Positions 24,921 to 50,931 of a stretch of DNA of 64,000 nucleotides are shown in pieces; the stretch's first letter is position 1, and every line of letters starts with the position of its first letter. Source of the DNA: Candidatus Omnitrophota bacterium. Lineage in GTDB: Bacteria; Omnitrophota; Gorgyraeia; 2-01-FULL-45-10. A program made the position numbers and the translations under genes. The notes beneath the pieces were generated by a model. That model did no database searches and was not told the origin of the DNA. It saw only the letters and a program-made list of their open reading frames with translations. The stretch is from contig JAGVGJ010000002.1 of assembly GCA_020057115.1 (NCBI GenBank), positions 857 through 64,856 of the forward strand, given 5' to 3'.

Positions 24921-24927
24921 GACGGTG

Positions 24928-24970: not shown

Positions 24971-24995
24971 ATAGTAATAAAAAAAGGGGCGTGAT

Positions 24996-27373: not shown

Positions 27374-27418
27374 TAATTAGTGGTTACCAAAAGACTACGC
27401 ATTTTACTTGTATATCAA

Positions 27419-29141: not shown

Positions 29142-29217
29142 TAGAACCTTTGGCTTGTTACCAAAAATATGTATTTTTTACTTGTAATATCAGATGAAAA
29201 GTTGTATAGTATTTCTA

Positions 29218-29312
29218 GCACATTGCAGTGCGAAGTAAGGCGTAGACGACCAAATAGAACATTGACGTTCACTAATTATCTCGAAATGCCGAGATAATGT
29301 GAACGTTTTTTT
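29218..29312 (+). promoter_or_regulatory. ANTAR-type dual hexaloop hairpins plus an intrinsic terminator in the glnN leader.
   Basis: Hairpin 1 is GCAC-ATTGCA-GTGC and hairpin 2 is GAAC-ATTGAC-GTTC. The terminator is ACGTTCACTAATTATCTCG / CGAGATAATGTGAACGT followed by T7. Confidence 0.5.
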
Positions 29313-29340
29313 ATTTTATGGTATAATACGGGAGGTTTAA

Positions 29341-31593
29341 ATGAGCATAAGACAAGAGACATTGAGCAGGATCAATGGGATCGACATTGGAGGTGGCAAG
29401 ATGGGTGTGAGGCAGGAGACATTGAACAAGATAAAAGGCGTAGAGCTCAAGAAGATCGACATGCCTAAGAAGGTCTCTTCATATTTCGGCGAGAACACTT
29501 TCAGCATAACTGCCATGCAGAAGTACCTGTCAAAGAATACCTTTGACGCTTTTAAGAAATGGATGTCGGAAGGCGTTACGATATCCAAGGACCAGGCCGA
29601 TGAGATAGCCAATGCCATGAAAGACTGGGCTATGTCAAAAGGCGCCACATACTACACCCACTGGTTCCAACCTATGACAGGCCTCACAGCTGAAAAACAC
29701 GACAGCTTCATATCTATCACAGGGCCGGGAAAGGTAATAGAGAAGTTCTCCGGTTCAAAACTGATACAGGGTGAGCCTGATGCAAGCTCATTCCCATCCG
29801 GTGGCATACGCGCTACATTTGAAGCGCGCGGCTATACCGCATGGGACCCGTCAAGCCCGGCATTCATAATCGAATCACAGCTCGGGAAGACCCTTTGCAT
29901 ACCGACAATATTCATCTCCTATCACGGAGAGGCTCTTGATAAGAAATTGCCGCTCCTGCGTTCGGATGAGGCGCTTTCAAAGGCGGCCGTAAATCTCCTA
30001 AAGCTCTTCGGGCATAAGGATGTAAAGAAGGCCTTCTCCACATGCGGTCCGGAACAGGAATATTTCCTGATCGACAAGAATTACTACAACTTAAGGCAAG
30101 ACCTGGTCATGACAGGCCGCACGCTAGTCGGAGCCGCTTCTCCCAAGGGACAGCAGCTTGAAGACCAGTATTTTGGGACGATCAAGGAACGCGTAGTAAA
30201 CTATATGTTCGAGGTCGCGGAAGAGGCATATAAGCTGGGCATACCTGTAATGACAAGGCATAATGAGGTCGCTCCGCATCAATATGAGTTCGCTCCGATC
30301 TTCGAAGAATCCAATATAGCAGCAGACCATAACCAGCTCTTGATGGAGATAATGAAGAAGGTGGCTCTAAGACATAACATGGTCTGTCTCCTCCACGAGA
30401 AACCGTTCGCCGGCATTAACGGCAGCGGCAAGCATGTGAACTGGTCGTTGGGGGATGATAAGGGCAACAACCTCCTCAATCCCGGAGACACCCCTGAAGA
30501 CAGCCTTCAGTTCCTTGCCGTGCTCGCGGCAGTATTGAGAGCCGTATACCTGCATTCGGATCTTCTGCGCGCAAGCGTTGCCATGGCGGGAAATGAGCAC
30601 CGTCTCGGCGCCAATGAGGCCCCTCCGGCCATCATAAGCGTATTCCTGGGAGCGCAGCTTACAAAGGTCCTGGACGTGATCGAAAAGGGGGCAAAGTCCA
30701 GCGTATCGAAGAAAGATATCATCGATCTCGGGATCGCCAGGCTGCCAAGGTTCAATAAGGATGCGACCGACAGGAACAGGACTTCGCCATTCGCATTTAC
30801 AGGCAATAAGTTTGAGTTCAGGGCTGTCGGTTCAAGCCAGAACATATCTACGCCGATCACGATCGTTAACACGATCATCGCTGATTCGTTGGACTATGTT
30901 GCCGATAAGATCAAGAAGGCATCTAGCGGCAAGGATTTCAACACAGCGGCTCTGCAAGTAATAGCCCAGATAATCAAGGAGACTAAGGATATCCGCTTCG
31001 AAGGCAATAATTATGCCGAAGAGTGGGTGAAAGAGGCCAAGAAGAGAGGGCTGCCGAATATAGCCTCGACATACGAATCGCTAGAGGCTCTCACTAAAGA
31101 GAAGAACATAGCATTATTCGAAAAATACAAAGTCTTCTCAAAAGAGGAGCTCGTAGCCCGCTACCACATATGGATACACACCTATGACCTGATCCTAGAG
31201 ATAGAAGCCAATACGCTAGTCGAGATGGTCAATGCGAGCATCGTCCCGGCAGGTTATGAATACGAAAAACTCCTGGCCACCAATCTGGGCAGGCTGGCAG
31301 AACTAAAGAAGGTTGCCGGCATGAAGCTCGACACAGCGGTATTAAAGGACAAGGTCGAGCACTTAAAAGACGTTTCATCGAAGATATATTACGTAAGACG
31401 TAATACGGGCGAGATGGTAAAGCTCCTTGAAAAGGCTCACACATTGTCGGCTGAGAAGCGCGCCGAGCTGTATTTCGAGGAGTTAAAGCCGCTTATGGAC
31501 CACATCAGGAAGCACGTGGATCAGCTCGAATGCGTCGTTTCAGACGAGCATTGGGATCTGCCGAAGTACAGAGAGATGTTGTTCATTAAATAG
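29341..31593 (+). CDS. glnN: Glutamine synthetase type III (GlnN); the first 20 codons appear tandemly duplicated.
   Basis: About 730-aa GSIII architecture. MSIRQETLSRINGIDIGGGK is followed by MGVRQETLNKIKGVELKK. GGGAGG RBS before 29341. Confidence 0.8.
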   Translation: MSIRQETLSRINGIDIGGGKMGVRQETLNKIKGVELKKIDMPKKVSSYFGENTFSITAMQKYLSKNTFDAFKKWMSEGVTISKDQADEIANAMKDWAMSKGATYYTHWFQPMTGLTAEKHDSFISITGPGKVIEKFSGSKLIQGEPDASSFPSGGIRATFEARGYTAWDPSSPAFIIESQLGKTLCIPTIFISYHGEALDKKLPLLRSDEALSKAAVNLLKLFGHKDVKKAFSTCGPEQEYFLIDKNYYNLRQDLVMTGRTLVGAASPKGQQLEDQYFGTIKERVVNYMFEVAEEAYKLGIPVMTRHNEVAPHQYEFAPIFEESNIAADHNQLLMEIMKKVALRHNMVCLLHEKPFAGINGSGKHVNWSLGDDKGNNLLNPGDTPEDSLQFLAVLAAVLRAVYLHSDLLRASVAMAGNEHRLGANEAPPAIISVFLGAQLTKVLDVIEKGAKSSVSKKDIIDLGIARLPRFNKDATDRNRTSPFAFTGNKFEFRAVGSSQNISTPITIVNTIIADSLDYVADKIKKASSGKDFNTAALQVIAQIIKETKDIRFEGNNYAEEWVKEAKKRGLPNIASTYESLEALTKEKNIALFEKYKVFSKEELVARYHIWIHTYDLILEIEANTLVEMVNASIVPAGYEYEKLLATNLGRLAELKKVAGMKLDTAVLKDKVEHLKDVSSKIYYVRRNTGEMVKLLEKAHTLSAEKRAELYFEELKPLMDHIRKHVDQLECVVSDEHWDLPKYREMLFIK

Positions 31594-31623
31594 GGTCCAG
31601 GGGCCAGGGTCAAGGGTCCAGGG
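31593..31623. repeat. Copy of the GC-rich heptad-repeat element (GGGTCCAGGGGCCAGGGTCAAGGGTCCAGGG), forward arm only.
   Basis: 26/27 identity to 50604-50630. Sits between the glnN stop and the ANTAR hairpins. Confidence 0.6.
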
Positions 31624-31639
31624 AAAAGAAAAAATTATA

Positions 31640-31730
31640 AAGCACAGGGTCGTGCTTAGATAGAGACAAAAGAACAGAGGCGTTCAAAAAGGTCGAATCG
31701 TACCGGCCTGTTTGAACGCCTCATTTTTAT
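31640..31730 (+). promoter_or_regulatory. ANTAR-type dual hexaloop hairpins plus an intrinsic terminator in the leader of the GATase-gltBD operon.
   Basis: Hairpin 1 is AGCAC-AGGGTC-GTGCT. A 15-nt linker follows. Hairpin 2 is GAAC-AGAGGC-GTTC. The terminator is GAGGCGTTCAAA...TTTGAACGCCTC followed by a U-tract. Confidence 0.55.
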
Positions 31731-32441
31731 ATGAAAAAAATACTGATAATAAAACATGTGGACATAGAGGGCCCGGGGACGATCGAAGAGTTCCTTGTCG
31801 ATTCGGGCTGGAATGTGTCGCAAATTAACCTCGGCTCAGGCGAGATGCTGCCGGCATCGCCGGAAGGGATGGATGCGGTCATATGTATGGGCGGCCCGAT
31901 GAACGCCTACGAGGAAGAGAAATATCCGTTCCTTAAGAATGAGGATGCATTCATTAAGCAGGTAATAGCTTTCAGGATCCCTTTCCTCGGCCTATGCCTG
32001 GGCGCCCAATTGCTCGCAAAGGCTGCGGGCGCAAAAGTGATGAAGGCGCCCGCTAAAGAGATCGGCTGGTACCAGGTAAGCCTTACAAAGGATGGAAAAA
32101 AAGACAGGCTCTTTAGGAGCGCTCCTTCTAACTTTATGGTATTCCAATGGCATGAAGACACTTTCGAGCTGCCCGAGAATGGCGTATTGCTGGCGAGATC
32201 CGACCGGTGCGAGAACCAGGCATTTCGCATCGGCAAGAATGCGTACGGCCTGCAATTCCATATCGAAGTAACACCGCCTATGATAGAAAGCTGGCTGACC
32301 GAAGGCAATATACAGAAGAATGACTCCAGGGCCATGCTAGATGAAGCATATTTAAGGAAAGAATCATATAGCAGCCAGGCTAATTCAATATACATGGATT
32401 TCGCTGATATAATAAAAAGCTCGGAAATTAGAAGAGCATAA
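31731..32441 (+). CDS. Class I glutamine amidotransferase domain protein.
   Basis: GLCLGAQLL nucleophile Cys motif. His/Glu in the C-terminal part. Confidence 0.6.
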   Translation: MKKILIIKHVDIEGPGTIEEFLVDSGWNVSQINLGSGEMLPASPEGMDAVICMGGPMNAYEEEKYPFLKNEDAFIKQVIAFRIPFLGLCLGAQLLAKAAGAKVMKAPAKEIGWYQVSLTKDGKKDRLFRSAPSNFMVFQWHEDTFELPENGVLLARSDRCENQAFRIGKNAYGLQFHIEVTPPMIESWLTEGNIQKNDSRAMLDEAYLRKESYSSQANSIYMDFADIIKSSEIRRA

Positions 32442-32480
32442 AAAATTTTTAAGTTTTAATGCCTAAGCATTAGGCATGAG

Positions 32481-32870
32481 GTGCTAAAGATGATAACCAT
32501 CTTGATAGATGACAACGAAAACAAGTTGAAAGAGCTGCTGAGCGGATTTTTGCGCAGAGAAGGATATGTCACCCAGCCGGACGAGAATGACCCTAGCATA
32601 ATAAAAGTCGTGCCGAAGGAGATCCACGACGGCAAATTCTCCTTAAAGAACAAGATCGTCGAGCTAGAAAACTCTTTATATTATCAGAAAAAGGGTGTAT
32701 TATATAAATCCATTTTAGAAAATGTCGAGAAGCCCATGATAGAGCATGCTCTTGAGCGCACCGAAGGAAATCAGCTCAAGGCGGCAAAGATGCTGGGCAT
32801 GAACCGGAATACGATACGCGCAAAGATAAAGAAGCTCGGCATAGACTTAACGAGATGGAAGGACCATTAA
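32481..32870 (+). CDS. Small Fis-type HTH (HTH_8) DNA-binding protein resembling an NtrC C-terminus.
   Basis: C-terminal QLKAAKMLGMNRNTIRAKIKKLGI. Stop is 1 nt before the gltB start. Confidence 0.5.
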   Translation: MLKMITILIDDNENKLKELLSGFLRREGYVTQPDENDPSIIKVVPKEIHDGKFSLKNKIVELENSLYYQKKGVLYKSILENVEKPMIEHALERTEGNQLKAAKMLGMNRNTIRAKIKKLGIDLTRWKDH

Positions 32871-32871
32871 A

Positions 32872-35800
32872 ATGACGAATTACCATCTTCCGAAAAAACA
32901 GGGACTTTACGATCCGGCATACGAACATGATGCCTGCGGGGTAGGCTTTGTCTGCAACATAAAAGGCGAGAGGTCAAACGAGATCGTAAAACAGGGACTC
33001 GAGGTATTGAACCGCCTCGCTAACAGGGGCGCTACGGGATCCGACCCTAAAACCGGCGACGGCGCGGGCATCCTCATGCAGATGCCGCATGAGTTCTTCG
33101 CTAAGGCATGTCAGAGCGCTAAGATAGATCTCCCGTCTTCGGGCGATTATGCTACAGGCCTGGTATTCCTGCCAACGGATACAAAAGAACGCGAGTTCTG
33201 TAAAGGCGTATTCAAGGCGGCCGTTGAAAAAGACGGGCAGGCGCTTATCGGCTGGCGCATTGTGCCGGTAGATGATTCGGACATAGGCCAGACCGCCAAA
33301 CAGACAGAACCCGTCATCGAGCAGCCATTTATCAGAAAGGCAGACGGCATAAAAAACTCTCTGGAATTCGAGAGGCGCCTCTACATAATAAGAAAGAAAA
33401 TAGAGAACGCTATACGCTCGTCTGATATTAAGCAGAGATCCTTCTTCTACATAACCAATCTCTCAAGCCGCACATTCTCGTATAAGGGCCTCTTGATGCC
33501 GCACCAGCTGGGCAATTTCTTCCCGGACTTAAAAGAGAGCTCCATCCAAAGCGCTATATCCCTTGTCCATTCACGCTATAGCACCAACACCTTCCCTACA
33601 TGGGACTTATCGCAGCCATTCCGTTTCCTTGCCCATAACGGCGAGATAAACACTCTTCGGGGAAATATCAACTGGATGGCCGCAAGAGAAGGGCTGCTCA
33701 AGAGCAAGCTCTTCGGGAAAGATATCAATAAGATATCTCCTATAATAGTTCCGGGCGGTAGCGACTCTGCGGCTCTAGATAATGTATTTGAGCTTCTGGT
33801 CCTATCCGGCAGGCCCATACATCATGCGATGATGATGCTCATCCCGGCGGCATGGCAGCAGGATAAGCTCATGGACAACAAGCTTAAAGATTTCTATCGC
33901 TACCACGCCTGCCTCACCGAGCCGTGGGATGGACCGGCAGCGATAGCATTTACTGACGGAACAAGGATAGGTGCAGTCCTTGATAGAAATGGCTTAAGAC
34001 CGGCTCGTTATATAGTTACAAAGACCGGTATGGTCGTTATGGCCTCGGAAGCCGGAGTGCTTGATATTGACGCAAAAGATATTGCTATATCAGGCAGGCT
34101 TGAGCCAGGCAAGACATTCTTCATAGACACCGAAGCCGGGCGCATCATAAATGATGCGGAGCTTAAGAAGGAGACGGCTGAAAAACAACCTTACTCGAAA
34201 TGGCTCAAGGATCACCTGAAGAACTTGGATGATCTGCCGGGACATAAAGCTGCTAAAGGGAAGACCGGCGATACGCTCACAGCCTTAAAGGCATTCGGAT
34301 ATACGCGGGAAGACCTGCGGATGATAATCAAGCCGATGGCCGCAAAAGGCCAGGAGCCTATCGGCTCCATGGGCAATGACGCGCCTCATGCTGTCATATC
34401 CAAGAAGCCGCATCTCTTATATACATACTTCAAGCATCTTTTTGCCCAGGTCACCAATCCTGCCATAGACCCGATAAGGGAAGAGCTTGTTATGAGCCTC
34501 GACAGTTATATCGGACCCGAAGAGAACCTGCTTGATGAGACACCGGAACATTGCAATAAACTCAAGGTTTCAAAGCCCATACTTAGCAATGAGGAGCTTG
34601 AAAAGATACGTCATATCAAGGTGAATGGCTTCCGGACCCGCACTATCCCGATATTGTTCAGCGCTTCGGACAGCAAAGACTTCACAAAAACCCTTGATGC
34701 CATATGCAGCCAGACCGTGAAAGCGATCAGGGATGGATACACTTTCGTCATATTGAGCGACCGCGGAGTGAATAAAGCTAAAGCTGCGCTGCCGGCCCTT
34801 TTGGCCACAGGGGCCGTCCACCAATACCTTATCAAGAAAGCCATGCGCACGCAGATAGGCATAATAGTGGAGAGCGCCGAGCCCAGAGAAGTACACCATT
34901 TCGCTCTTCTCTTCGGTTATGGCGCAGATTGCGTAAATCCATATCTTGCTTACGAAGCAGTCGAATACCTGGTAAAGGAAGGCGAGCTTGATATCGACGC
35001 GAAGAACGCTGTGTCTAATTACAAAAAAGCGATCAATAAAGGCATCCTTAAAATACTTTCGAAGATGGGCATCTCTACATTACAGAGCTACCGCGGAGCG
35101 CAGATATTCGAGGCATTGGGTATAGGCGAGAAAGTAATAGCTAAATGTTTTACAGGAACTCCTTCCCGTATAGGCGGCGTAGACTTCGAGGTGCTCGGCA
35201 AGGAATGCCTCATAAGGCATGAAGATGCATATCCGAAAGACGCCGTACGATCTCCGATCCTTCCGCCCGGCGGCATATATCAATGGCGCATGGACGGGGA
35301 TTTTCACCTTTGGAATCCCGACTCGATTGCAGCCCTCCAGGATGCCACAAGATTCAATGACCGGGAAAGATATAAGGAATTTGCAAGGCTGATAAATGAC
35401 CAGTCAGATAATCCGTGCACATTGAGAGGGTTGCTGCGATTTAAGCCGGGAAAGCCTATCACAATAGATGAAGTAGAGCCTTTCGAGGAGATAGTGAAGC
35501 GTTTCGCTACCGGAGCTATGAGCTTCGGTTCGATAAGTAAAGGCGCCCACGAGACGCTCGCCATCGCTATGAACCGCCTGAAAGCAAAGTCCAATACCGG
35601 AGAGGGCGGGGAAGATCCTGCAAGGTTCCAGTCTCTCCCGAACGGTGACTCTGCAAGGAGCGCTATCAAGCAAGTCGCATCCGGCAGATTCGGCGTGACC
35701 ACAAATTATCTTATAAACGCGGACGAGCTCCAAATAAAGATAGCGCAAGGCGCAAAACCCGGAGAGGGCGGGCAGCTGCCCGGGCACAAGGTAAGCGCCA

Positions 35801-37401
35801 TCATCGCGAAGACACGCTACACCACTCCGAGAGTTACCCTGATATCGCCTCCGCCTCATCATGATATCTACTCCATTGAGGACCTGGCACAGCTTATATT
35901 TGACTTAAAAAATGTCAACCCTCGCGCCAGGATAAGCGTGAAGCTCGTATCCGAAATAGGCGTTGGCACAGTAGCGGCCGGCGTCGCCAAGGGCCATGCA
36001 GACATGATCCTGATATCGGGAGGGGATGGCGGGACAGGCGCATCGCCTTTAAGCTCCATAAAACACGCCGGGCTTCCGTGGGAGCTCGGATTATCCGAAG
36101 CCCACCAGACCCTTGTCCTGAATGACTTGAGAAGCCGGGTGCGACTTCAGACCGACGGCCAGATGCGGACCGGCCGGGATGTCGCTATAGCCGCTATGTT
36201 GGGAGCCGAAGAGTTCGGATTCTGCACGGCAGCCCTGATAGTATTGGGATGCGTGATGCTGAGGCATTGCCATCTCAACAACTGTTCTGTCGGAGTCGCG
36301 ACCCAGGACGAGATACTCGAGAAACATTTCAGGGGCAAGCCGGAATATGTGATCAATTATTTCCGGTTCGTCATAGAAGAATTGCGCGAGATAATGGCAT
36401 CCCTCGGGATACGCAAGCTTGATGAGATGGTTGGAAGGTCGGACCTGTTAGAGACCAACTCGGACATCCTTCCATGGAAAGCAAAAGGAATAGATTTTTC
36501 CCGCATACTATACAAGCCTGAAGTCCCGTCTTCGGTGGGGATCTATTGCACAAAAGCTCAGGACCATGGTATCGACAAAACATTGGACCGGAAACTTATA
36601 GAGCTGTCTAAGGATGCCCTGGAAAGGGCTGAAGCCGTAAAAATATCCTTACCGATAAGTAATGTCAACAGGACCGCCGGCGCCACACTATCCGGAGAGG
36701 TCTGCAGGATATGGGGAGAGAATGGCCTTGCCGAAGATACTATACACTGCAAGTTTAAAGGCGTGGCAGGGCAGAGTTTCGGTGCATTTCTTGCCAAGGG
36801 CGTCACGTTCGAGCTCGAAGGCATGGCGAACGATTATGTCGGTAAAGGCATATCATCCGGCAAGATCATCATCTATCCCGATAAGAATGCCGGATATAAG
36901 CCGGAAGAGAATATAATAATCGGCAATACCACTTTCTACGGCGCCATAAAGGGAGAGGCCTACATACGTGGGATGGCCGGGGAGAGGTTCTGCATAAGAA
37001 ACTCCGGGCTTCTGGCTGTAGTCGAAGGCGTAGGCGACCATGGATGCGAATACATGACCGGCGGGCGCGTCATAGTGCTGGGCAAGACCGGCAGGAACTT
37101 CGGCGCCGGCATGTCAGGAGGGATCGCGTATATCTATGACGAATCCGGAGACTTCAAATACAAATGCAACACCGAGATGGTAGAGCTTGAGAAAGTCGGA
37201 AGAGATGACCTCCTGATTATTAATGACCTTCTTATTAATCATTACAGGTACACTCAAAGCCCTATCGCGAAGAAAATAATCGACGATTTCAAGTCAAACA
37301 TTAAGAAATTCATAAAGGTCATGCCGACAGAATACAAGCGCATTTTAGACACAAAGAAGATGGACGAGAAGTTGGACCTAACAGAGGTATCAGATGGGTG
37401 A
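32872..37401 (+). CDS. gltB: Glutamate synthase large subunit.
   Basis: 1509 aa. N-terminal Ntn amidotransferase Cys (CGVGFV), FMN and 3Fe-4S domains, C-terminal GXGXG domain. Confidence 0.9.
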   Translation: MTNYHLPKKQGLYDPAYEHDACGVGFVCNIKGERSNEIVKQGLEVLNRLANRGATGSDPKTGDGAGILMQMPHEFFAKACQSAKIDLPSSGDYATGLVFLPTDTKEREFCKGVFKAAVEKDGQALIGWRIVPVDDSDIGQTAKQTEPVIEQPFIRKADGIKNSLEFERRLYIIRKKIENAIRSSDIKQRSFFYITNLSSRTFSYKGLLMPHQLGNFFPDLKESSIQSAISLVHSRYSTNTFPTWDLSQPFRFLAHNGEINTLRGNINWMAAREGLLKSKLFGKDINKISPIIVPGGSDSAALDNVFELLVLSGRPIHHAMMMLIPAAWQQDKLMDNKLKDFYRYHACLTEPWDGPAAIAFTDGTRIGAVLDRNGLRPARYIVTKTGMVVMASEAGVLDIDAKDIAISGRLEPGKTFFIDTEAGRIINDAELKKETAEKQPYSKWLKDHLKNLDDLPGHKAAKGKTGDTLTALKAFGYTREDLRMIIKPMAAKGQEPIGSMGNDAPHAVISKKPHLLYTYFKHLFAQVTNPAIDPIREELVMSLDSYIGPEENLLDETPEHCNKLKVSKPILSNEELEKIRHIKVNGFRTRTIPILFSASDSKDFTKTLDAICSQTVKAIRDGYTFVILSDRGVNKAKAALPALLATGAVHQYLIKKAMRTQIGIIVESAEPREVHHFALLFGYGADCVNPYLAYEAVEYLVKEGELDIDAKNAVSNYKKAINKGILKILSKMGISTLQSYRGAQIFEALGIGEKVIAKCFTGTPSRIGGVDFEVLGKECLIRHEDAYPKDAVRSPILPPGGIYQWRMDGDFHLWNPDSIAALQDATRFNDRERYKEFARLINDQSDNPCTLRGLLRFKPGKPITIDEVEPFEEIVKRFATGAMSFGSISKGAHETLAIAMNRLKAKSNTGEGGEDPARFQSLPNGDSARSAIKQVASGRFGVTTNYLINADELQIKIAQGAKPGEGGQLPGHKVSAIIAKTRYTTPRVTLISPPPHHDIYSIEDLAQLIFDLKNVNPRARISVKLVSEIGVGTVAAGVAKGHADMILISGGDGGTGASPLSSIKHAGLPWELGLSEAHQTLVLNDLRSRVRLQTDGQMRTGRDVAIAAMLGAEEFGFCTAALIVLGCVMLRHCHLNNCSVGVATQDEILEKHFRGKPEYVINYFRFVIEELREIMASLGIRKLDEMVGRSDLLETNSDILPWKAKGIDFSRILYKPEVPSSVGIYCTKAQDHGIDKTLDRKLIELSKDALERAEAVKISLPISNVNRTAGATLSGEVCRIWGENGLAEDTIHCKFKGVAGQSFGAFLAKGVTFELEGMANDYVGKGISSGKIIIYPDKNAGYKPEENIIIGNTTFYGAIKGEAYIRGMAGERFCIRNSGLLAVVEGVGDHGCEYMTGGRVIVLGKTGRNFGAGMSGGIAYIYDESGDFKYKCNTEMVELEKVGRDDLLIINDLLINHYRYTQSPIAKKIIDDFKSNIKKFIKVMPTEYKRILDTKKMDEKLDLTEVSDG

Positions 37402-38836: not shown

Positions 38837-38843
38837 TGATCTT

Positions 38844-42397: not shown

Positions 42398-42419
42398 TAC
42401 GCAGCAAGGTCGGGAAAAT

Positions 42420-42500
42420 ATGGATATTCTTTTTATAGGGATCATTGCGATTCTGGCAATGATCTCTTTTGCCTTTATAGCGCTATGCGCCAAGCTATGA
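42420..42500 (+). CDS. Tiny hydrophobic ORF (about 26 aa, MDILFIGIIAILAMISFAFIALCAKL) in the kdp leader; coordinates are accurate to +/-1.
   Basis: Single predicted TM helix. Not in the ORF track, which has a length cutoff. Confidence 0.2.
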   Translation: MDILFIGIIAILAMISFAFIALCAKL

Positions 42501-42514
42501 GCGGAGACACGCCA

Positions 42515-42606
42515 TGACAATGATATACTGGATCGGCGGCACAATTTCTCTTCTTCTATTTATCTATCTCTTGATAGCCCTTCTTAAGCCGGAGATATTC
42601 TCATGA
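42515..42606 (+). pseudogene. kdpF: kdpF-like gene with an apparent -1 frameshift.
   Basis: ATG ACA ATG ... GGC GG then a frame change. The downstream frame encodes TISLLLFIYLLIALLKPEIFS and ends with TGA overlapping the kdpA ATG (ATGA). An intact reading would need one extra nucleotide after GGCGG. Confidence 0.4.
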
Positions 42607-44339
42607 ACTGGAGCAATCTCACCCAGGCCTCCATCTACATCATAACCATACTAGTCTTCGTCAAGCCTCTTGGTATGTATATGGCCAGGATATATGAAGG
42701 CAAGCCTGCGGGCATGAATGTTTGGCTGGGATGGATAGAGAGGGTCATCTATCGCCTGTCAGGGGTAAACCCTGAACAAGAGATGACCTGGAGGGCATAT
42801 GCCGTTGCTGCGATGATCTTTAATTTTTTTGGCATAATTACCGTATATGCTATCCAGCGTCTTCAGGTATTCCTTCCTTTAAACCCGATGTCGATACCTG
42901 CCGTGGCACCGGACCTAGCATTCAACACGGCTGTCAGCTTTGCCACAAATACGAACTGGCAGAGTTATGGCGGCGAGACAACATTAAGTTATTTTACCCA
43001 GATGCTCGGATTAACGGTCCAGAACTTTGTGTCGGCAGCGACAGGCATGGCTGTGCTCGCAGCATTGATCAGAGGTTTTATCCAAAAACAGTCAGACAGA
43101 ATAGGAAATTTCTGGGTTGATCTGGTCAGATCAACGCTCTATATTTTATTACCGCTATCAATACTCTTGTCCATCATATTAGTTTCGCAAGGCGTGGTGC
43201 AGACGTTCAAGCCATATGAAAAAGTGGCTATGGTCCAGCCGATAAATAATAATGGAACGGCCGCCCAGGAGCAGGTAATTGCGTTAGGCCCGGCCGCTTC
43301 ACAGATAGCTATTAAACAATTGGGGACAAATGGCGGCGGTTTTTTTAATACAAATTCTTCACACCCATTCGAAAACCCGACGCCTCTATCCAACTTCTTA
43401 GAGGTCATCGCCATTCTTTTGATACCGGCCGCCCTATGTTATACATTCGGCTGCATGGTCAAAGACAAACGCCAGGGATGGGCGCTATTGGCTGTAATGC
43501 TCATAATATTCATACCGTGCCTGTGGAGTTCGATGCACTTTGAGCAAAAGGGAAACCCATTATTTGATCGGCTAGGCATCGACCAAAAAGCATCCGCTTT
43601 CCAGCCGGGCGGCAATATGGAAGGGAAAGAGGCCCGTTTCGGTATAGCAAATTCCGCCATATGGGCTGCAGCGACAACAGCCGCTTCGAATGGCTCTGTC
43701 AACTCAATGCATGATTCTTTCATGCCCCTGGGTGGATTGGTACCAATGTGGCTCATGCAGTTGGGCGAGGTCATATTTGGCGGAGTGGGCTCCGGACTTT
43801 ACGGACTGCTCGCATTTGTGATCGTTGCCGTATTCATAGCAGGCCTCATGATAGGCCGCACTCCGGAATATCTGGGCAAAAAGATAGAATCGTATGAGAT
43901 GAAGATGGCCGCTCTTGTACTCCTAATCCCGCACATGCTTGTGCTTGCCGGAACCGCCATATCTGTTATTTTACCCCAGGCACGGCAGGCGATATTGAAC
44001 CTTGGCGCGCATGGCCTGAGTGAAGTGCTTTATGCTTTTTCATCCGCAGGCAACAATAACGGGAGCGCGTTCGCCGGCCTTTCGACGAACAATATCTATT
44101 ATAATATCGCGCTAGGGCTTGCCATGTTCTTCTCCAGATACTGGCTTATCATCCCGACCCTTGCCATCGCCGGGTCGCTTTCGAAGAAGAAGATCGTGCC
44201 TGTGAGCCAGGGGACTCTACCAACGCATACGCCGCTCTTCGTCATATTTCTTGTAATGGTCGTTCTCATTGTCGGCGCCCTGACATTCTTTCCGGCATTG
44301 GCGCTGGGGCCCATAGCTGAACATCTAATGCTCCATTAG
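42603..44339 (+). CDS. kdpA: Potassium-transporting ATPase subunit A.
   Basis: 578-aa polytopic protein. KdpA selectivity-filter-like GGG repeats. Confidence 0.9.
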   Translation: MNWSNLTQASIYIITILVFVKPLGMYMARIYEGKPAGMNVWLGWIERVIYRLSGVNPEQEMTWRAYAVAAMIFNFFGIITVYAIQRLQVFLPLNPMSIPAVAPDLAFNTAVSFATNTNWQSYGGETTLSYFTQMLGLTVQNFVSAATGMAVLAALIRGFIQKQSDRIGNFWVDLVRSTLYILLPLSILLSIILVSQGVVQTFKPYEKVAMVQPINNNGTAAQEQVIALGPAASQIAIKQLGTNGGGFFNTNSSHPFENPTPLSNFLEVIAILLIPAALCYTFGCMVKDKRQGWALLAVMLIIFIPCLWSSMHFEQKGNPLFDRLGIDQKASAFQPGGNMEGKEARFGIANSAIWAAATTAASNGSVNSMHDSFMPLGGLVPMWLMQLGEVIFGGVGSGLYGLLAFVIVAVFIAGLMIGRTPEYLGKKIESYEMKMAALVLLIPHMLVLAGTAISVILPQARQAILNLGAHGLSEVLYAFSSAGNNNGSAFAGLSTNNIYYNIALGLAMFFSRYWLIIPTLAIAGSLSKKKIVPVSQGTLPTHTPLFVIFLVMVVLIVGALTFFPALALGPIAEHLMLH

Positions 44340-44354
44340 TTTAAAAAAGGCCGC

Positions 44355-46433
44355 ATGAAGACATCACATAAAAAAAGATCGTTATTTGACCTGGCAATAG
44401 TCGGGCCGGCTGTCATCGATTCTTTAAAAAAGCTGGATCCCAGGCACCAGATCAAGAATCCAGTGATGTTCGTTGTCCTGATAGGGAGCATACTGACTAC
44501 GGGACTGTATATCCAGGCTGTGCTAGGCCAGGGAGAGGCGCCGGCAGATTTTATTCTCGCTATCTCATTATGGTTATGGTTCACTCTGATCTTCGCCAAC
44601 TTCGCCGAAGCCATGGCTGAAGGCCGCGGAAAGGCGCAAGCGGCAAGCCTCCGGCGCGCCCGGAAAGACACTCCGGCAAAGAAACTCTCAAGCCCAAAAT
44701 ATGGGTCGGATTTTAAAACTGTTTCCGCTACAACTCTCAAGAAGGGTGATGTCGTTCTGGTAGAAGCCGGAGACGCGATCCCCATGGACGGTGAGGCAAT
44801 AGAAGGCATAGCCTCTGTCGATGAAAGCGCTATCACCGGCGAGAGCGCACCTGTAATACGCGAATCAGGCGGTGACCGCAGCTCTGTTACGGGCGGGACA
44901 AGGGTGCTTTCAGACTGGCTTGTCATACGCATCAGTTCCAATCCCGGCGAGACATTTCTCGACCGCATGATCGCCATGGTCGAAGGCGCCAAACGCCGAA
45001 AGACCCCCAACGAGATCGCTCTAAGTATTTTATTGGCAGTGTTCACCATAATATTTCTTTTAGCTACGGTAACATTATTACCCCTCTCGATATATAGCGT
45101 TTCGGCAGCCGGCCACGGAGCGCCGATCACGGTTACTGTGCTGGTGGCTTTACTCGTATGCCTTATCCCTACGACTATCGGAGGGCTGCTTCCCGCGATA
45201 GGCATCGCGGGCATGGACAGGATGATCCAGGCCAATGTCATAGCCACATCCGGTCGTGCCGTTGAGGCGGCAGGGGATGTGGATGTCCTGTTACTCGACA
45301 AAACCGGTACGATAACTCTAGGGAACAGGCAGGCTGTATCTTTTATACCGTCCAAGGATGTAAGCGTTGGATCGCTGGCAGATGCGGCGCAGCTCTCTTC
45401 GCTATCTGACGAAACGCCCGAGGGGAGAAGCATCGTGGTTTTAGCAAAAGAAAAATACGGAATAAGAGGCCGCCACATCCATGAGCTCGAAGCAAAATTC
45501 ATCCCATTTACCGCCCAGACGCGCATGAGCGGTGTAGACCTGGGCGACGGCAGACAAATAAGAAAAGGCTCGGTTGACGCTATCGAAGATTACGTGAAAG
45601 CGCTAGGTGGTTCCTTCCCTGAAGATTTAAAGGCAAGCATTGAATCGATAGCCAAGTCCGGCGGCACGCCGCTTGTCGTAGCAGAACACAAGAACGTGCT
45701 TGGTGTCGTACAGTTAAAGGATATCGTAAAGGGCGGCATAAAGGAACGGTTTGCGGAGCTGCGCCGTATGGGAATAAAGACCGTCATGATAACAGGGGAT
45801 AATCCTTTAACTGCCGCGGCCATTGCCGCCGAAGCGGGTATGGATGATTTTCTGGCCAAGGCTACGCCTGAAACGAAGCTTAAGCTTATCCGTGAAATGC
45901 AATCCGGGGGCAGGCTCGTAGCAATGACGGGAGACGGGACCAATGACGCGCCGGCTCTCGCGCAAGCTGATGTCGCGGTTGCCATGAACACCGGCACGCA
46001 GCCTGCTAAAGAGGCAGGCAATATGGTAGACCTTGATTCAAACCCTACAAAACTTATCGAGATCGTAGAGATAGGCAAGCAGCTTCTCATGACACGCGGT
46101 TCATTGACAACATTCAGCATCGCCAATGACATATCTAAATACTTTGCCATCATACCGGCGGCATTTGTAGGAATCTATCCAGCATTGGGAGCGCTTAATA
46201 TCATGCACCTGGCGACACCGGAAAGCGCCGTATTATCGGCGGTTATCTTCAACGCGCTCGTAATTATTTTTCTCATCCCGCTCGCCCTGCGCGGCGTGCC
46301 ATATAAACCGATGCCGGCGAACCGCCTTCTGAAAGACAACCTGTTGATATATGGGGTCGGAGGGATAGTTGCGCCATTTATAGGCATTAAATTGATCGAC
46401 ATGATCTTGGTGGCATTGCATTTAGTCAGATAA
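44355..46433 (+). CDS. kdpB: Potassium-transporting P-type ATPase subunit B.
   Basis: DKTGTIT phosphorylation motif, TGDN and [10 protein letters not shown] motifs. Confidence 0.9.
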
Positions 46434-46441
46434 GGAGAAAC

Positions 46442-47017
46442 ATGCTAAGAGGGCATATCAGACCGGCGATCTTGATATTCTTGATCCTGACCGTTATTAC
46501 AGGGATCCTTTACCCGATGTTCATCACCTGGGTCGCTCAAGCATTTTTTCATTCCCAGGCTAACGGCAGCTTGATATACCGCGATGGAAAACCGACAGGA
46601 TCGGCTCTTATTGGCCAGCAGTTCGATGACCCAAAATATTTATGGGGACGCATATCTGCAACATCGACGGTGCCATATAATTCCGCCTCCTCAGCCGGTT
46701 CGAATCTAGGCCCTTCGAATCCGGCGCTTGTGAATAATTTAAAAGCGCGAATAACGGTCTTAAGATCCTCTGATCCGGACAACAATCTGCCGATCCCCGT
46801 AGACCTCGTCACTTCGTCGGCAAGCGGGCTCGACCCGCATATAAGCCGAGCAGCCGGCTATTACCAGATAAGGCGCATAGCAAGGACAAGAGGCATGCCG
46901 GAAGAGGCTATAAAACATATCATAGATCGCAATACAACCGGCCGTCTTTTCGGTTTGATGGGTGAGTCGGTAGTCAATGTATTAAAGGTAAATATAGATT
47001 TGGATTCTCACAAATAA
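46442..47017 (+). CDS. kdpC: Potassium-transporting ATPase subunit C.
   Basis: 191 aa, N-terminal TM helix, KdpC family core. Confidence 0.85.
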   Translation: MLRGHIRPAILIFLILTVITGILYPMFITWVAQAFFHSQANGSLIYRDGKPTGSALIGQQFDDPKYLWGRISATSTVPYNSASSAGSNLGPSNPALVNNLKARITVLRSSDPDNNLPIPVDLVTSSASGLDPHISRAAGYYQIRRIARTRGMPEEAIKHIIDRNTTGRLFGLMGESVVNVLKVNIDLDSHK

Positions 47018-47034
47018 TAGAGTATATTATACAC

Positions 47035-49233
47035 ATGGTTGATGAAAGATCGGACATAGGGGCTATATTGGCGAAAGTAAAGACCGAGGAACCCAACCGC
47101 GGTAAATTGAAGATCTTCTTTGGCGCCATGGCCGGGGTCGGCAAGACCTACACCATGCTCGAGGCAGCCAGGGCCCAGAAGAAAGAGGGCGTCGACGTCG
47201 TTGCCGGATACGTTGAAACCCATAAACGCGCTGAAACAGATGCCCTCTTGGAAGGCCTTGAGATACTACCTAGAAAAAATATCGTATATAAAGGCGTGGA
47301 TATCAGCGAATTCGATATAGATCTCGCTTTAAAGAGACATCCCGCCATAATATTGGTAGACGAGCTGGCCCATTCGAATGCCCCTGACTCCCGTAATTTA
47401 AAACGCTGGCAAGATGTCGAAGAACTGCTCGAGGCGGGCATCGACGTCTACACCACTTTAAATGTCCAGCATTGTGAAAGCATAAACGACGTAGTGGCGC
47501 AGATCACCGGCATAACGGTTCGCGAAACTGTCCCCGATACGTTCATAGAAAAGGCTGACGACATAGAGTTGGTAGACCTTCCGCCCGAAGACCTTTTAAA
47601 GCGTCTTAAGGAAGGCAGGGTGTACCTGGGAGATCAGGCTGAGCGCGCTATCCAAAATTTCTTCCAGATAGGCAATCTCATCGCATTAAGGCAGCTGGCG
47701 CTGCAATATACTTCGCGCCTTGTGGACGCCAATATGCGTACCTATAAACAGACCTATTCGGTATCGAAGGTCTGGAACGTGCGTGACCGATTCCTGGTAA
47801 GCATCAGCCCGTCGCCGCACGCCATAAACCTGATAAGAGCGGGAAAGCGTATAGCGTCGGGCCTGGGCGTAGAATGGATCGTGGTAAACGTAGAAACTCC
47901 TTCCTACACATACAACAAAAAGGATAGGGCTCGGGTAGCCGAGATGATGCGCTTTGCAGAAGAGCTTGGGGCCGAGACCATTACTTTGACCGGCCAGGAT
48001 GTCGCGGAGAGCTTGGTCTCTTATGCACGTTCGCGGAACATCACAAAGATCATAGCAGGGAAGCCCGGGAAACCCCGATGGCATGAGCTGCTATTCGGCT
48101 CAACCGTCAATGGGCTTGCCCGCAAATGTGGCGAAATAGACCTGTACCTTATAAGCGGAGAAGCGCACGGAGATCCTGTAAAATTCGAGCTGCGTCTGTC
48201 AAAACCATTTCCGTGGAAAAGCCTGTTATCGACCGTCATAACGGTCGCGCTCTGCAGCATAATCGGAAGGATATTATCCCGTTACCTGGGCCCGGAAAAC
48301 GTGGTCATGATGTATCTGCTGGGAGTGGTGTGGATCGCTTATAGATATGGCCTCAGGGCATCTGTCATAGCCTCATTCCTCAGCGTCCTCGCCTTCGATT
48401 ATTTTTTTGTGCTGCCTTATTTTACTTTTGTGGTAGCGGATGTCAAAAAAGACCTGGTCACATTTGTGGTCATGTTGATCGTAGGCATCACGATAAGCGT
48501 TCTAACGGGACGGCTCAGGCAGCAGGCCATCTCCATGCGACTGCGCGAAAGCAGGACACAGGCCCTTTACCAGTTAAGCAGGGACCTTGCCAAAAGCTCC
48601 GATCCAAAAGAACTATTCCAGGTAGCGGCCATGCATATACAGAAATTTTTTAAATGCCGGAGCGCTATATTTTCACCCGACAAAAAAGGAAAGATAGAGA
48701 TATTTTTTGATAACTCAAAGGGCACGGCACTCATGGAAAATGAACAGGCTGTAGCCCAATGGGTGTACGAGCACAAGAAGATGGCTGGCAAAGATACGGA
48801 CACGCTGCCGGGGTCTAGAGGCCTCTATCTGCCACTTGCGGGGTCAGAAAAGACCGTGGGCGTTATCGGCATATTCCCGCATGAAGATAAACAGTTTACG
48901 GATCCTGAGCATTTGCACATGCTCGAGATGTTCGTAAATCAGACTGCATTGGCGGTAGAGGGAGCCCAGCTTGCCGCCGCGACCGTAAAGGCAGAGACCG
49001 AGGTCGAGAACGAGCGCCTTCGGAACATGCTATTAAGCACATTTTCTTTCGACATTCCGGCCCCGTTAACAGCTATCTCTGAGGCAGCCGCAAGCCTGTT
49101 AATACCGGAAAACGCGCATGACCCGGCAAAACGCGATAAACTGATACGGAAGATACGGGCTGAAGCAGAACGCTTAAATGGCCTGGCCGCAGAAATGACC
49201 AAGATCATCACTTCGAAAGAAGACCTTGGCTGA
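47035..49233 (+). CDS. kdpD: KdpD-like sensor lacking a functional histidine kinase. Domains: KdpD-N, USP, 4TM, GAF, and a degenerate H-box with no HATPase_c.
   Basis: N-terminal Walker A GAMAGVGKTYTM. The H-box reads STFSFDIPAPLTAI where SHDLRTPL is expected. The protein ends about 90 aa later. No kdpE follows. Confidence 0.7.
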   Translation: MVDERSDIGAILAKVKTEEPNRGKLKIFFGAMAGVGKTYTMLEAARAQKKEGVDVVAGYVETHKRAETDALLEGLEILPRKNIVYKGVDISEFDIDLALKRHPAIILVDELAHSNAPDSRNLKRWQDVEELLEAGIDVYTTLNVQHCESINDVVAQITGITVRETVPDTFIEKADDIELVDLPPEDLLKRLKEGRVYLGDQAERAIQNFFQIGNLIALRQLALQYTSRLVDANMRTYKQTYSVSKVWNVRDRFLVSISPSPHAINLIRAGKRIASGLGVEWIVVNVETPSYTYNKKDRARVAEMMRFAEELGAETITLTGQDVAESLVSYARSRNITKIIAGKPGKPRWHELLFGSTVNGLARKCGEIDLYLISGEAHGDPVKFELRLSKPFPWKSLLSTVITVALCSIIGRILSRYLGPENVVMMYLLGVVWIAYRYGLRASVIASFLSVLAFDYFFVLPYFTFVVADVKKDLVTFVVMLIVGITISVLTGRLRQQAISMRLRESRTQALYQLSRDLAKSSDPKELFQVAAMHIQKFFKCRSAIFSPDKKGKIEIFFDNSKGTALMENEQAVAQWVYEHKKMAGKDTDTLPGSRGLYLPLAGSEKTVGVIGIFPHEDKQFTDPEHLHMLEMFVNQTALAVEGAQLAAATVKAETEVENERLRNMLLSTFSFDIPAPLTAISEAAASLLIPENAHDPAKRDKLIRKIRAEAERLNGLAAEMTKIITSKEDLG

Positions 49234-49266
49234 CATTCATTCAATAAATATGCCAAAAAAGATAGG

Positions 49267-49294
49267 TTGACAAATAATATTACCCTAATATAAT
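49267..49294 (+). promoter_or_regulatory. Sigma70-type promoter (TTGACA-N16-TATAAT) for the atp operon.
   Basis: Read from the sequence. Confidence 0.5.
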
Positions 49295-49308
49295 ATTAAT
49301 TAACACCA

Positions 49309-49584
49309 ATGGCGATGTCTTCTGGCGACGAATGCTGGAGGGCATTTTTTATGCAAAAAAAGAAGGTCTACAAGTGGATCAAGATCGGTGGGCTATTATC
49401 ATTCCTGCCGTTCGTAATGGCTGCCGGACCTCTCGGGGGATACCTGATGGGCGAGCTCCTGCAGAAAAAGCTGGGACTTCCTCCGATAACGATGGCGATA
49501 TGCATAATACTTGGATTCCTCGGAAGCGCCGTCGAAACTGTTAAAGTGATCAAGATGGCGCTGCGCGCAGAGGAGAAAGACTAG
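49309..49584 (+). CDS. atpZ: AtpZ/AtpI-family small membrane protein encoded upstream of the ATP synthase genes; probable start at the internal Met near 49351.
   Basis: Two TM helices with a GPLGGYLMG motif. Position matches atpZ. Confidence 0.4.
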   Translation: MAMSSGDECWRAFFMQKKKVYKWIKIGGLLSFLPFVMAAGPLGGYLMGELLQKKLGLPPITMAICIILGFLGSAVETVKVIKMALRAEEKD

Positions 49585-49586
49585 AG

Positions 49587-49865
49587 ATGGGCAATCCGAA
49601 ACTTATGTGGTTGAGCGGTTTTCTTATCGGCGCCGGCTGGAGCGCCGTAAATTTCCTTCTCATATTATCCATTCTTAAGATATCTATGCTCGAAAAACCG
49701 AAGACAAAGCTGGGGGCTATACTTCTTTTGAAATTTCCGGTGCTTTATCTCGTCGGATTCCTGATACTGAATTCCGGCATCTTCCCGATATCAAGTATAC
49801 TTGCAGGCCTGACATCAACACTATTACTTGTCGGAGCTATAAAATTATGGCCGAAGCGCACGTAG
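49587..49865 (+). CDS. atpI: ATP synthase protein I-like membrane protein.
   Basis: 92-aa, two-TM protein immediately upstream of atpB. Confidence 0.4.
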   Translation: MGNPKLMWLSGFLIGAGWSAVNFLLILSILKISMLEKPKTKLGAILLLKFPVLYLVGFLILNSGIFPISSILAGLTSTLLLVGAIKLWPKRT

Positions 49866-50599
49866 CGACTAACCCGGAACTGCCCAACCTTGTCACAATA
49901 CTCGAAAAGACATTCGAGGGAACTTCCTTCGCGCATTTCCTGAAGGCGTGGGAGAACATAATATTCTCTCTGATCATCATATTCATGATCACCGTGGTGG
50001 CATATTTTGTTTCCAAAAAGAACTCCATGGTGCCTGGGCGTTTCCAGTGCGCGTGGGAGATGTTCGTGGGCGGAGTGGATGATTTCGTATGCGGCATAAT
50101 GGGGCCGGCGGGAAGACAGTTCGTCCCATTCATCGGAACGCTCTTCATCTACATACTCTTCATGAACCTCTCGGGGCTCATACCGTTATTTAAATCTCCT
50201 ACGTCAAACTGGTCCATAACTCTCGCGCTCGCCCTCTGCGTTTTCGTTTACGTCCAATTCACCGGCTTCAGGAGGCTTGGGTTTTTGGGTTATATCGACC
50301 ACCTGGCTGAAAAGCCAAGAGGGATACTGGCATTCTCGGTCATAATACCGATACTCATGTTCTTCCTGCATGTCATATCGGAGCTTGTTCGGCCCTTGAG
50401 CCTCTCCTTGCGTTTACGAAGCAATATCTGGGGAGATGACACGCTCCTGGCCGTTCTCGCCGGATTCGGGTTGGGCGGGGTGCCGCTCCTTCTTTTTAAT
50501 ACGTTCCTTGTAATAATCGCAGGCATAGTCCAGACGCTGGTATTCTGCCTGTTAACGACAATATACTTCACGCTCATCGTGACAGGTGAAGAGCATTAA
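49847..50599 (+). CDS. atpB: F0 subunit a.
   Basis: Conserved Arg in LSLRLRSNIWGDD of the penultimate helix. Five or six TM helices. Confidence 0.85.
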   Translation: MAEAHVATNPELPNLVTILEKTFEGTSFAHFLKAWENIIFSLIIIFMITVVAYFVSKKNSMVPGRFQCAWEMFVGGVDDFVCGIMGPAGRQFVPFIGTLFIYILFMNLSGLIPLFKSPTSNWSITLALALCVFVYVQFTGFRRLGFLGYIDHLAEKPRGILAFSVIIPILMFFLHVISELVRPLSLSLRLRSNIWGDDTLLAVLAGFGLGGVPLLLFNTFLVIIAGIVQTLVFCLLTTIYFTLIVTGEEH

Positions 50600-50603
50600 C
50601 GTA

Positions 50604-50675
50604 GGGCCCAGGGGCCAGGGTCAAGGGTCCGGTAAAATTTTATTCTGGACCCTGGACCCTTGTCCCTTGACCCTT
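50604..50675. repeat. GC-rich heptad-repeat element forming a long hairpin in the atpB-atpE spacer: forward arm GGGCCCAGGGGCCAGGGTCAAGGGTCC, reverse arm GGACCCTGGACCCTTGTCCCTTGACCCTT.
   Basis: 26/27 identical to 31593-31623. A related GGGTCCAGGGTCC repeat lies at 3386-3400. Confidence 0.6.
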
Positions 50676-50700
50676 ACACATAACTAAAAGGAGGCGTTAG

Positions 50701-50931
50701 ATGGATTACAAAACAGCACTGGCATTCGCTCTGCCGCTTGGGTTGGCGATTGCGGCATTCGGTTCAGCGATAGGCCTTGGCAGGGTAGTTGCGGCGGCGA
50801 TGGACGCCACCGGAAGACAACCGGAAGCGGCAACCAAGATACTCATTAACATGGCGACGGGTTGCGCGTTCATAGAGGCGCTCACGATCTACGCGCTTGT
50901 ATTCGTCTTCGGCTTAGCCGGAAAGATATAA
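50701..50931 (+). CDS. atpE: F0 subunit c.
   Basis: GRQPE loop, two TM helices. 76 aa. Confidence 0.85.
   Translation: MDYKTALAFALPLGLAIAAFGSAIGLGRVVAAAMDATGRQPEAATKILINMATGCAFIEALTIYALVFVFGLAGKI

Follow-up and report, generated by a model that had tools for sequence, protein, structure and literature searches.

Intergenic heptad repeats in Candidatus Omnitrophota: a dispersed element present as single words and as convergent pairs

The stretch of contig JAGVGJ010000002.1 of a metagenome-assembled Candidatus Omnitrophota genome analysed here, which is referred to as the window over its full length of 64 kb, contains a short, GC-rich intergenic element that is built of 7-nt units. This element belongs to the known heptameric simple-sequence repeats, of which GGGAATC in Xanthomonas, GGGGAYT in Nostoc and the STRR in cyanobacteria are described members. 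It is present in three forms: a single word at the 3' end of glnN, a remnant at the junction of pgeF and a binding-protein gene, and two convergent words between atpB and atpE. We consider it rather likely that these are members of an intergenic repeat family specific to an Omnitrophota lineage, which would change by slippage and spread by copying between loci, and of which the self-folding hairpin would be tolerated or weakly useful.

The two full-length words were read directly from the window sequence. The glnN copy is GGGTCCAGGGGCCAGGGTCAAGGGTCC (beginning with GGGTCC) at 31593-31619 and the atp copy is GGGCCCAGGGGCCAGGGTCAAGGGTCC (beginning with GGGCCC) at 50604-50630; as was already evident from the preliminary description of this DNA, they are identical at 26 of 27 positions. 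A search with GGGYCCAGGGGCCAGGGTCAAGGGTCC allowing up to 3 mismatches returned the sites at 31593 and 50604 only, and there was no match in 100 dinucleotide-preserving shuffles of the window. With two sites found and none expected from the shuffles, a chance match of two 27-mers is ruled out. The proposed heptad unit was also recovered by Tandem Repeats Finder, which reported a period of 7 with 4.6 copies at 31592-31623 and 4.0 copies at 50648-50675, and the arrays of the window amount to 4.6, 4.3 and 4.4 heptad units. A profile search (nhmmer) with a profile made from 12 copies of the family detected three loci only, with E-values of 1e-24, 4.5e-14 and about 0.003, the last one being the short copy at 3385-3400. 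The parts of the element in the window are as follows.

31592..31623, + strand: solo G-rich array of 4.6 heptads (AGGGTCC AGGGGCC AGGGTCA AGGGTCC AGGG), from Tandem Repeats Finder and the profile search
31624..31640, + strand: A-rich tail AAAAGAAAAAATTATAA after the solo array, from alignment A1
50603..50632, + strand: G-arm of the atpB-atpE element (AGGGCCC AGGGGCC AGGGTCA AGGGTCC GG), from the sequence and the profile search
50633..50644, + strand: A/T-rich loop TAAAATTTTATT, from the sequence and the predicted fold
50645..50675, + strand: C-arm of inverted heptads (CT GGACCCT GGACCCT TGTCCCT TGACCCT T), from the sequence and Tandem Repeats Finder
about 50601..50677, + strand: whole imperfect hairpin of about 77 nt, predicted at -47 kcal/mol with z = -4.5
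3385..3400, + strand: short degenerate copy (TGGGTCC AGGGTCC GG), from the sequence and nhmmer (E about 0.003)

The first two bases of the array at 31592 complete the TAG stop codon of glnN, so that the distance to the stop is 0 nt. The A-rich tail at 31624-31640 corresponds to the left loop half of the copies that form hairpins (compare TCCAGGGAAAAACAAAAAAG in contig L137), and in A1 the glnN copy, i.e. word and A-rich tail, aligns to the left half only. Because its tail matches this loop half alone, the glnN copy resembles one half of an element from which the C-arm is missing. The G-arm of the atp copy starts 4 nt past the TAA of atpB, and the C-arm, when read on the minus strand, is a second G-rich word. 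Of the inverted array that had been described here, the four heptads are indeed present at 50648-50675, but the gap that separates them from the first word is 17 nt rather than 15. The short copy reads GGGTCCAGGGTCC at 3386-3398 and, as stated before, encodes GPGSG; it is translated as ...GGMGPGSGKK... in a tail of 38 residues past the end of the PgeF Pfam domain. This copy lies within the PgeF read-through tail and is followed by an A-run and the Shine-Dalgarno sequence of a sugar-binding-protein gene, a layout of word, A-run and ribosome-binding site that is also that of the solo copies in metagenome contigs L130, L154, L123 and L132.

The view that this is a genuine multi-copy repeat is supported by copies at unrelated loci in metagenomes. 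A metagenome scan with AGGGNCCAGGGTCAAGGGTCC yielded 51 stretches at roughly 42 distinct places, and the exact 27-mer of glnN was found at six other distinct places (L130, L135, L145/L147/L166, L154, L169 and L184). The RibH homologues of L137 place this contig in Omnitrophota, and two hairpin copies flank its ribH, the first in the ribBA-ribH spacer and the second past the gene. Contig L184, which is closely related to L137 and was likewise placed through RibH homologues, has TTAAATAGGGTCCAGGGGCCAGGGTCAAGGGTCCAG behind the stop codon of ribH, of which 36 nt are identical to positions 31586-31621 of the window although the gene context is another; unlike in the glnN copy, this stretch continues into a loop and a C-arm. 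Further junctions of this kind in metagenome contigs are ribH-nusB and the 3' end of rodA. In several contigs, as at position 3385 of the window, solo copies are located on the coding strand 5-15 nt upstream of start codons. The consensus of A1 starts with an A/T-rich head and the four heptads, continues through an A-run, a short loop and a T-run, and closes with the inverted heptads; the consensus of the word is GGGTCC AGGGGCC AGGGTCA AGGGTCC, which corresponds to four AGGGNCM heptads. Such a shared order of variant units cannot have come from independent expansions, and the copies must therefore descend from one another. The motif ATAACTAAAAGGAGG downstream of the hairpin was considered as a possible part of the element, since it recurs before ribH in L184, yet it is also present at the empty sites of L185 and L176 and thus represents native ribosome-binding context. 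No element matches were observed in viral contigs, and a phage-borne element was rejected on this ground. Orthologues of the glnN 3' flank were sought via the downstream amidotransferase, but even the nearest ones did not exceed 60% identity and lacked synteny. Statistics on strand and gene context gave no usable signal with a crude open reading frame caller on GC-rich contigs.

The turnover of the element can be followed at orthologous sites. Among the best homologues of the window AtpB, all those with an organism name belong to Candidatus Omnitrophota. In the three closest relatives found, with AtpB proteins that are 77-82% identical, the atpB-atpE spacer, which is 101 nt long in the window, measures 90-113 nt and has a stable hairpin, of which the units differ from those in the window: AGGCACC/AGGTACC in L174, AAGCTAT in L121, and 9-mers in L122. 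The z-scores of the atpB-atpE hairpins range from -3.1 to -5.5 in these relatives. Despite the change of unit, the orthologous hairpins keep four to five units per arm, and those of L174, L121 and L122 are devoid of GGG runs. In three more distant Omnitrophota (AtpB about 66% identical) the spacer is 20 nt or 12 nt long, or the genes overlap, and no period-7 arrays were present in the DNA of these organisms that was examined (8-21 kb). Two of the close relatives, L121 (1100-1270) and L122 (1910-2030), have an additional hairpin of GTCAAAA/GGTAAAA heptads between atpE and atpF, with about -40 kcal/mol in L121; the atpE-atpF spacer of the window is only 6 nt long.

A gain of the element can be seen at ribBA-ribH, where the spacer of L185 is empty and 38 nt long, and that of L137 is filled and about 100 nt long. 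The insertion of the L137 type supplies a TAG stop codon that makes RibBA two codons shorter. Comparison of the filled site in L137 with the empty one in L185 revealed no target-site duplication such as marks a miniature inverted-repeat transposable element, and 16 nt were replaced. At one locus that was sampled three times, the contigs were otherwise about 97% identical and differed by the insertion or deletion of two heptads (14 nt) in the C-arm. Taken together, and as far as can be read from sequence comparison, these sites document that arrays change in length in the manner of slippage, that elements are gained or replaced at fixed junctions, that the hairpin architecture persists, and that G-tracts are dispensable. 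Three spacers of L185 (3789-4051, 13247-13280 and 13551-13685) moreover hold another type of dispersed repeat (GCGGCCATCGAAATTTT-like), and at about 1990-2025 this contig has a solo heptad array of the TGCGT type between a riboswitch-like leader and ribBA.

Heptad arrays are by no means confined to this family. A degenerate four-heptad pattern gave at least 120 matches from many phyla in the genome collection, and the 833 kb of DNA around the matches listed (L001-L120) contained 261 arrays of period 7, compared with 10, 25, 7, 5 and 1 arrays of periods 5, 6, 8, 9 and 10, respectively. G-tracts were absent from 89 of the 261. Several different heptads can share one locus, for example in L001, L019, L028 and L032. 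The most frequent array length was four units among 372 arrays from fetched loci, a sample that is biased by its seeding with arrays of at least 3-4 units. Inverted pairs in the fetched loci (L001-L185) displayed a marked polarity, with the G-rich arm on the 5' side in 41 of 43 cases and the C-rich arm first in 2. When arms were scored independently by purine content, the purine-richer arm came first in all 29 G-type pairs and in 13 of 14 non-G pairs, i.e. in 42 of 43 pairs on both strands, whereas generic perfect inverted repeats in the same DNA were purine-first in 66 cases versus 31. It should be noted that these loci were chosen for holding one G-type array, that the figures for the non-G pairs are less biased, and that the sample is small. 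This strict polarity has previously been reported only in the form of 'convergent' pairs in Xanthomonas.

To judge what the hairpin could do in the atp operon, its gene setting has to be considered together with that of the solo array.

29341-31593: glnN, type III glutamine synthetase
31677..31729, + strand: terminator-like hairpin and T-run 3' of the solo array
31731-32441: class I amidotransferase
49267..49294, + strand: perfect sigma-70 consensus promoter (TTGACA, 16 nt, TATAAT) upstream of the atpI-like gene and the atp operon
49847-50599: atpB, ATP synthase subunit a
within 50690..50704, + strand: Shine-Dalgarno sequence GGAGG of atpE (50690-50694) followed by the ATG (about 50701-50702), outside the hairpin
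50701-50931: atpE, ATP synthase subunit c

The terminator-like hairpin downstream of the solo array places that array in the 3' untranslated region of glnN. For the RNA hairpin at 50601-50677, none of 200 shuffles folded as well. The long hairpin that had been proposed between atpB and atpE is thus also predicted here, with a length of 77 nt instead of roughly 70. It consists of 6-bp helices that are interrupted about once per heptad, in a stem of about 30 bp. Past the C-arm the sequence continues with TACACATAAC and has no T-run, and no terminator was called at 50601-50690; a Rho-independent terminator is thereby ruled out. In view of the upstream promoter and the missing T-run, the hairpin should be internal to the operon transcript. 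The preliminary description had also suggested a translational-coupling hairpin for atpE, but in the predicted fold the Shine-Dalgarno sequence lies 14 nt beyond the stem, so that control of atpE by hiding this site finds no support. A known RNA family can be ruled out for the element as well, since an Rfam scan gave no match at the gathering threshold and only sub-threshold look-alikes of microRNA precursor hairpins. As a separate observation, TAACG at the atpB stop (50597-50601) could pair with the complementary CGTTA that lies between the atpE Shine-Dalgarno sequence and start codon (50695-50699), and in one predicted fold this pairing closes a helix of 5-6 bp around the whole hairpin, which may be due to chance.

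The explanation that we favour, a slippage-prone and copied repeat family of an Omnitrophota lineage, would work along the following lines. Arrays would lengthen and shorten by whole units through slippage, a process of which the 14-nt polymorphism is a direct example. Whole words would be copied between loci by recombination or another mobilisation that leaves no target duplication; this is suggested by the identical 27- to 36-mers in unrelated contexts and by filled versus empty orthologous sites. New copies would land 0-5 nt from a stop codon and can supply the stop themselves. Once transcribed, the paired form would fold into a self-contained hairpin. In the atp operon, the stem would restore the distance from the atpB stop to the ribosome-binding region of atpE to about 18 unpaired nt, which is near the presumed ancestral spacing; indeed, the spacer is 12-20 nt in the two distant relatives of which the genes do not overlap. 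Since transcription would not end at the hairpin and the Shine-Dalgarno sequence would stay exposed, the hairpin would be tolerated inside operons, and a role as barrier to 3' exonucleases or as processing site is plausible as a secondary gain. The capacity to form a G-quadruplex is probably a by-product of the unit sequence rather than a selected property, given the low G4Hunter scores, the preference of ViennaRNA for hairpins, and the existence of orthologous hairpins without G-tracts.

Several points weigh against this explanation. The unit order TCC-GCC-TCA-TCC is fixed, heterogeneous and common to several genomes, which is unlike free slippage and could reflect recognition by a protein or enzyme-driven mobility. 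The contigs that carry the 27-mer range in GC content from 0.46 to 0.65, and the placement in Omnitrophota covers L137 and L184. The presence of a hairpin between atpB and atpE in all four members of the close clade could mean that there is selection for a specific role. The ViennaRNA quadruplex parameters and G4Hunter are rough guides, and similar G3N4 repeats do fold in vitro. Lastly, the function of the element is wholly inferred.

The persistence of the atpB-atpE hairpin leads to an alternative that deserves attention, though we regard it as doubtful, namely that this is a dedicated intercistronic hairpin which sets the ratio of subunit a to subunit c through RNase III-type processing or as a 5' or 3' stabiliser. 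The half-life of the atpE-distal part of the mRNA would then differ from that of atpI-atpB, and the tandem repeats would merely be the route by which the stem evolved. The occupation of the same junction in all four close relatives despite complete sequence turnover would fit such a role, and so would an imperfect stem of about 30 bp without a terminator tail. Segmental mRNA stability is well known from the atp operon of E. coli. A functional stem made of 7-nt repeats, in which one repeat class has been replaced by another, is found in P6b of the Nostoc trnL intron (PMC4476775). This alternative is opposed by the fact that distant Omnitrophota manage with spacers of 0-20 nt, by the occurrence of the element at ribBA-ribH, at ribH-nusB, at the 3' end of rodA and in the form of solo arms unable to build a stem, and by the extra heptad hairpin that L121 and L122 have at atpE-atpF, where the window has 6 nt.

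The abundance and polarity of heptad arrays across phyla could be taken further. Heptad palindromes, whether G-rich or not, might represent a widespread, self-propagating class of intergenic elements with a mechanism specific for 7 nt, for instance fold-back template switching together with slippage, or an enzyme of its own. The purine-first orientation and the docking at stop codons would be characteristic of this class, the hairpin would be silent for the operon, and GGGTCCAGGGGCCAGGGTCAAGGGTCC would be a spreading member. We advance this only as a speculative reading.

An element of the REP type, as brought up in the preliminary description, would imply that a RAYT or another tyrosine transposase of the IS200/IS605 type, encoded elsewhere in the genome, copies the single-stranded hairpin or its arms. 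Identical words at unrelated loci of different genomes would be in line with this, as would filled and empty sites without target-site duplication, which are expected for that transposase family; indeed, the window family resembles REP elements and BIMEs in being short, GC-rich, dispersed and intergenic, in its location after stop codons, in its inverted pairs and in the absence of target duplication. Transcribed REP and BIME hairpins can stabilise upstream mRNA. Nevertheless, the data bear out the dispersed nature of the repeat, as attested by the 27- to 36-mers at unrelated loci and by the filled and empty sites, and lend no support to membership in the REP/RAYT system. The heads in A1 (CGTAG, ATAG, AAAG, AATG and AACG) have no conserved GTAG type, the arms consist of tandem heptads and are not palindromes, and the variation in length by whole units points to slippage. 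Moreover, a Pfam scan of the 40 open reading frames of the window revealed no transposase, so that the linked REP/RAYT enzyme that had been suggested was not encountered there, viral contigs are without matches, and the sister class of repeats is unlinked to insertion sequences or transposable elements (Rehm et al., PMC4692102). We therefore judge a REP-like origin to be improbable.

A G-quadruplex switch, in which the four G3 tracts would compete with the hairpin and thereby modulate transcription, translation or decay of glnN and atpE mRNA, seems to us no less improbable. The match of the arrays to the canonical quadruplex pattern had been overlooked before, as had the fact that the repeat class was already described (Rehm et al., 2015). 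Three of the five canonical G3N1-7 loci in the window are these arrays, the other two being located at 26215 and 28327; an array of four units is just large enough for a quadruplex, transcription always reaches the G-arm before the C-arm, and sister repeats fold in vitro (PMC4692102). On the other hand, the G4Hunter mean over 25 nt falls clearly short of customary thresholds and never reaches 1.5 over the arrays because of the CC in each unit (by hand we estimate about 0.7 per AGGGTCC heptad), and when ViennaRNA was permitted to form quadruplexes, none appeared in a minimum-energy fold, not even in that of the G-arm by itself. In addition, the hairpin units are AGGCACC, which is without GGG, in the closest relative and AAGCTAT or GTCAAAA in others, and each arm still has four to five of them.

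Lastly, the array could be bound by a sequence-specific protein, for example an RNA binder of the cold-shock, S1 or CsrA type or a DNA-binding factor with recognition of 7-nt units, as has been put forward for the TAACTGA heptamers (PMC4679880); this would explain the conserved unit order, the exact heterogeneous 27-mer that is kept across loci and contigs of different GC content, and the solo copies that precede start codons by 5-15 nt on the coding strand, including the one at 3385, but orthologous sites tolerate wholly different units and no candidate gene is linked to the element, so that we hold this to be very unlikely.

Other features of the window are recorded here as separate observations. 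A box TTTTACTTGTAWA is present on the + strand at 24834-24846, 27402-27414 and 29176-29188 (three found versus 0.1 expected), upstream of nitrogen genes, namely a 253-aa open reading frame with a 414-aa open reading frame and a PII gene behind it, the pair amtB-PII, and glnN. Between each box and its gene there is a hairpin with a T-run that directly precedes the gene, and ACAGAGGCGTTCAA is common to two of the stems; the hairpins are located near 24920-24975, 27445-27490, 29255-29320 and 31677-31722. There was no Rfam match at E ≤ 1. The boxes and hairpins may be leaders or attenuators of a nitrogen regulon. After the last gene, at 63857-63992, there are nested palindromes with 33-nt arms that enclose a perfect 15-nt hairpin, and CCCTCTCGGGG-like motifs are common to them and to the 217-nt gap at 57735-57951 (57821-57920); these palindromes may be another repeat or a small RNA. 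Four small open reading frames with a PilZ domain are clustered in 10748-16700 (at 10748, 11658, 13386 and 16281).

The present findings extend the heptanucleotide repeats to a new phylum, the uncultured Omnitrophota, and reveal a fixed four-unit word that was evidently copied between loci and genomes. The hairpin architecture outlasts changes of the unit, including changes to units without G-tracts, which counts against the quadruplex as a selected property. Annotation of such genomes calls for caution, since the elements can supply stop codons, lengthen operon spacers, and mimic quadruplexes, microRNAs and REP elements in pattern without being members of those families. Four features merit a systematic survey of complete genomes: the fixed order of the units, their location at stop codons, the prevalence of period 7 and the purine-first polarity.

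Tandem repeats of heptanucleotides came to light around 1990 as the STRR of cyanobacteria. The STRR units CCCCAGT, TTGGTCA and CAACAGT were defined for heterocystous cyanobacteria, and none of these matches AGGGNCM. A common trait is that arrays of period 7 dominate the intergenic tandem repeats. The STRR and the over-representation of heptanucleotides in bacterial genomes are referred to here as they are cited in Rehm et al. (PMC4692102). Arrays of 2-6 copies of the heptamer TAACTGA have been reported from Beggiatoaceae, cyanobacteria and Bacteroidetes; they are intergenic, many of them are located just upstream of start codons, and a post-transcriptional role is suspected (MacGregor 2015, PMC4679880). 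The window element shares with them the short intergenic heptamer arrays, some of which are near start codons, but TAACTGA is a different unit that is not G-rich and that occurs almost only in direct repeats, with one inverted case.

Closer in structure is the P6b stem-loop of the Nostoc tRNA-Leu(UAA) intron with its 7-nt repeats TDNGATT or NNTGAGT, in which whole units are inserted or deleted and one repeat class has repeatedly been replaced by the other (Kaasalainen et al. 2015, PMC4476775). The arms of the window hairpin are likewise tandem heptads with insertions and deletions of whole units, and the unit class is swapped while the stem persists. The differences are that P6b lies inside a group I intron and the window stem between cistrons, and that the units and the lineage are other ones.

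The closest match is provided by the G-rich heptameric repeats GGGAATC of Xanthomonas and GGGGAYT of Nostoc (Rehm et al. 2015, PMC4692102). These occur genome-wide in the order of 100-200 sites, are over-represented in non-coding DNA, comprise about four units, adjoin stop codons, and are found singly or as convergent pairs, with 70-75 inverted pairs in each Xanthomonas genome that are always convergent. Their length varies between relatives, they are generally not associated with insertion sequences or transposable elements, and they form quadruplexes in vitro, though no function has been identified (PMC4692102). The window element differs from them in its host phylum, Omnitrophota, in its AGGGNCM unit, which contains CC and has a lower predicted quadruplex propensity, and in its fixed heterogeneous four-unit word across loci and genomes, as opposed to the near-homogeneous arrays of the described repeats. 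It agrees with them in its head-to-tail 7-nt units that each have a G3 tract, in having about four units per array, in the position of its arrays at stop codons (0 nt for glnN and 4 nt for atpB), and in the convergent pair at 50603-50675 that is able to form a stem-loop. Judged by these sequence features, the window element is a member of this class of heptameric repeats.

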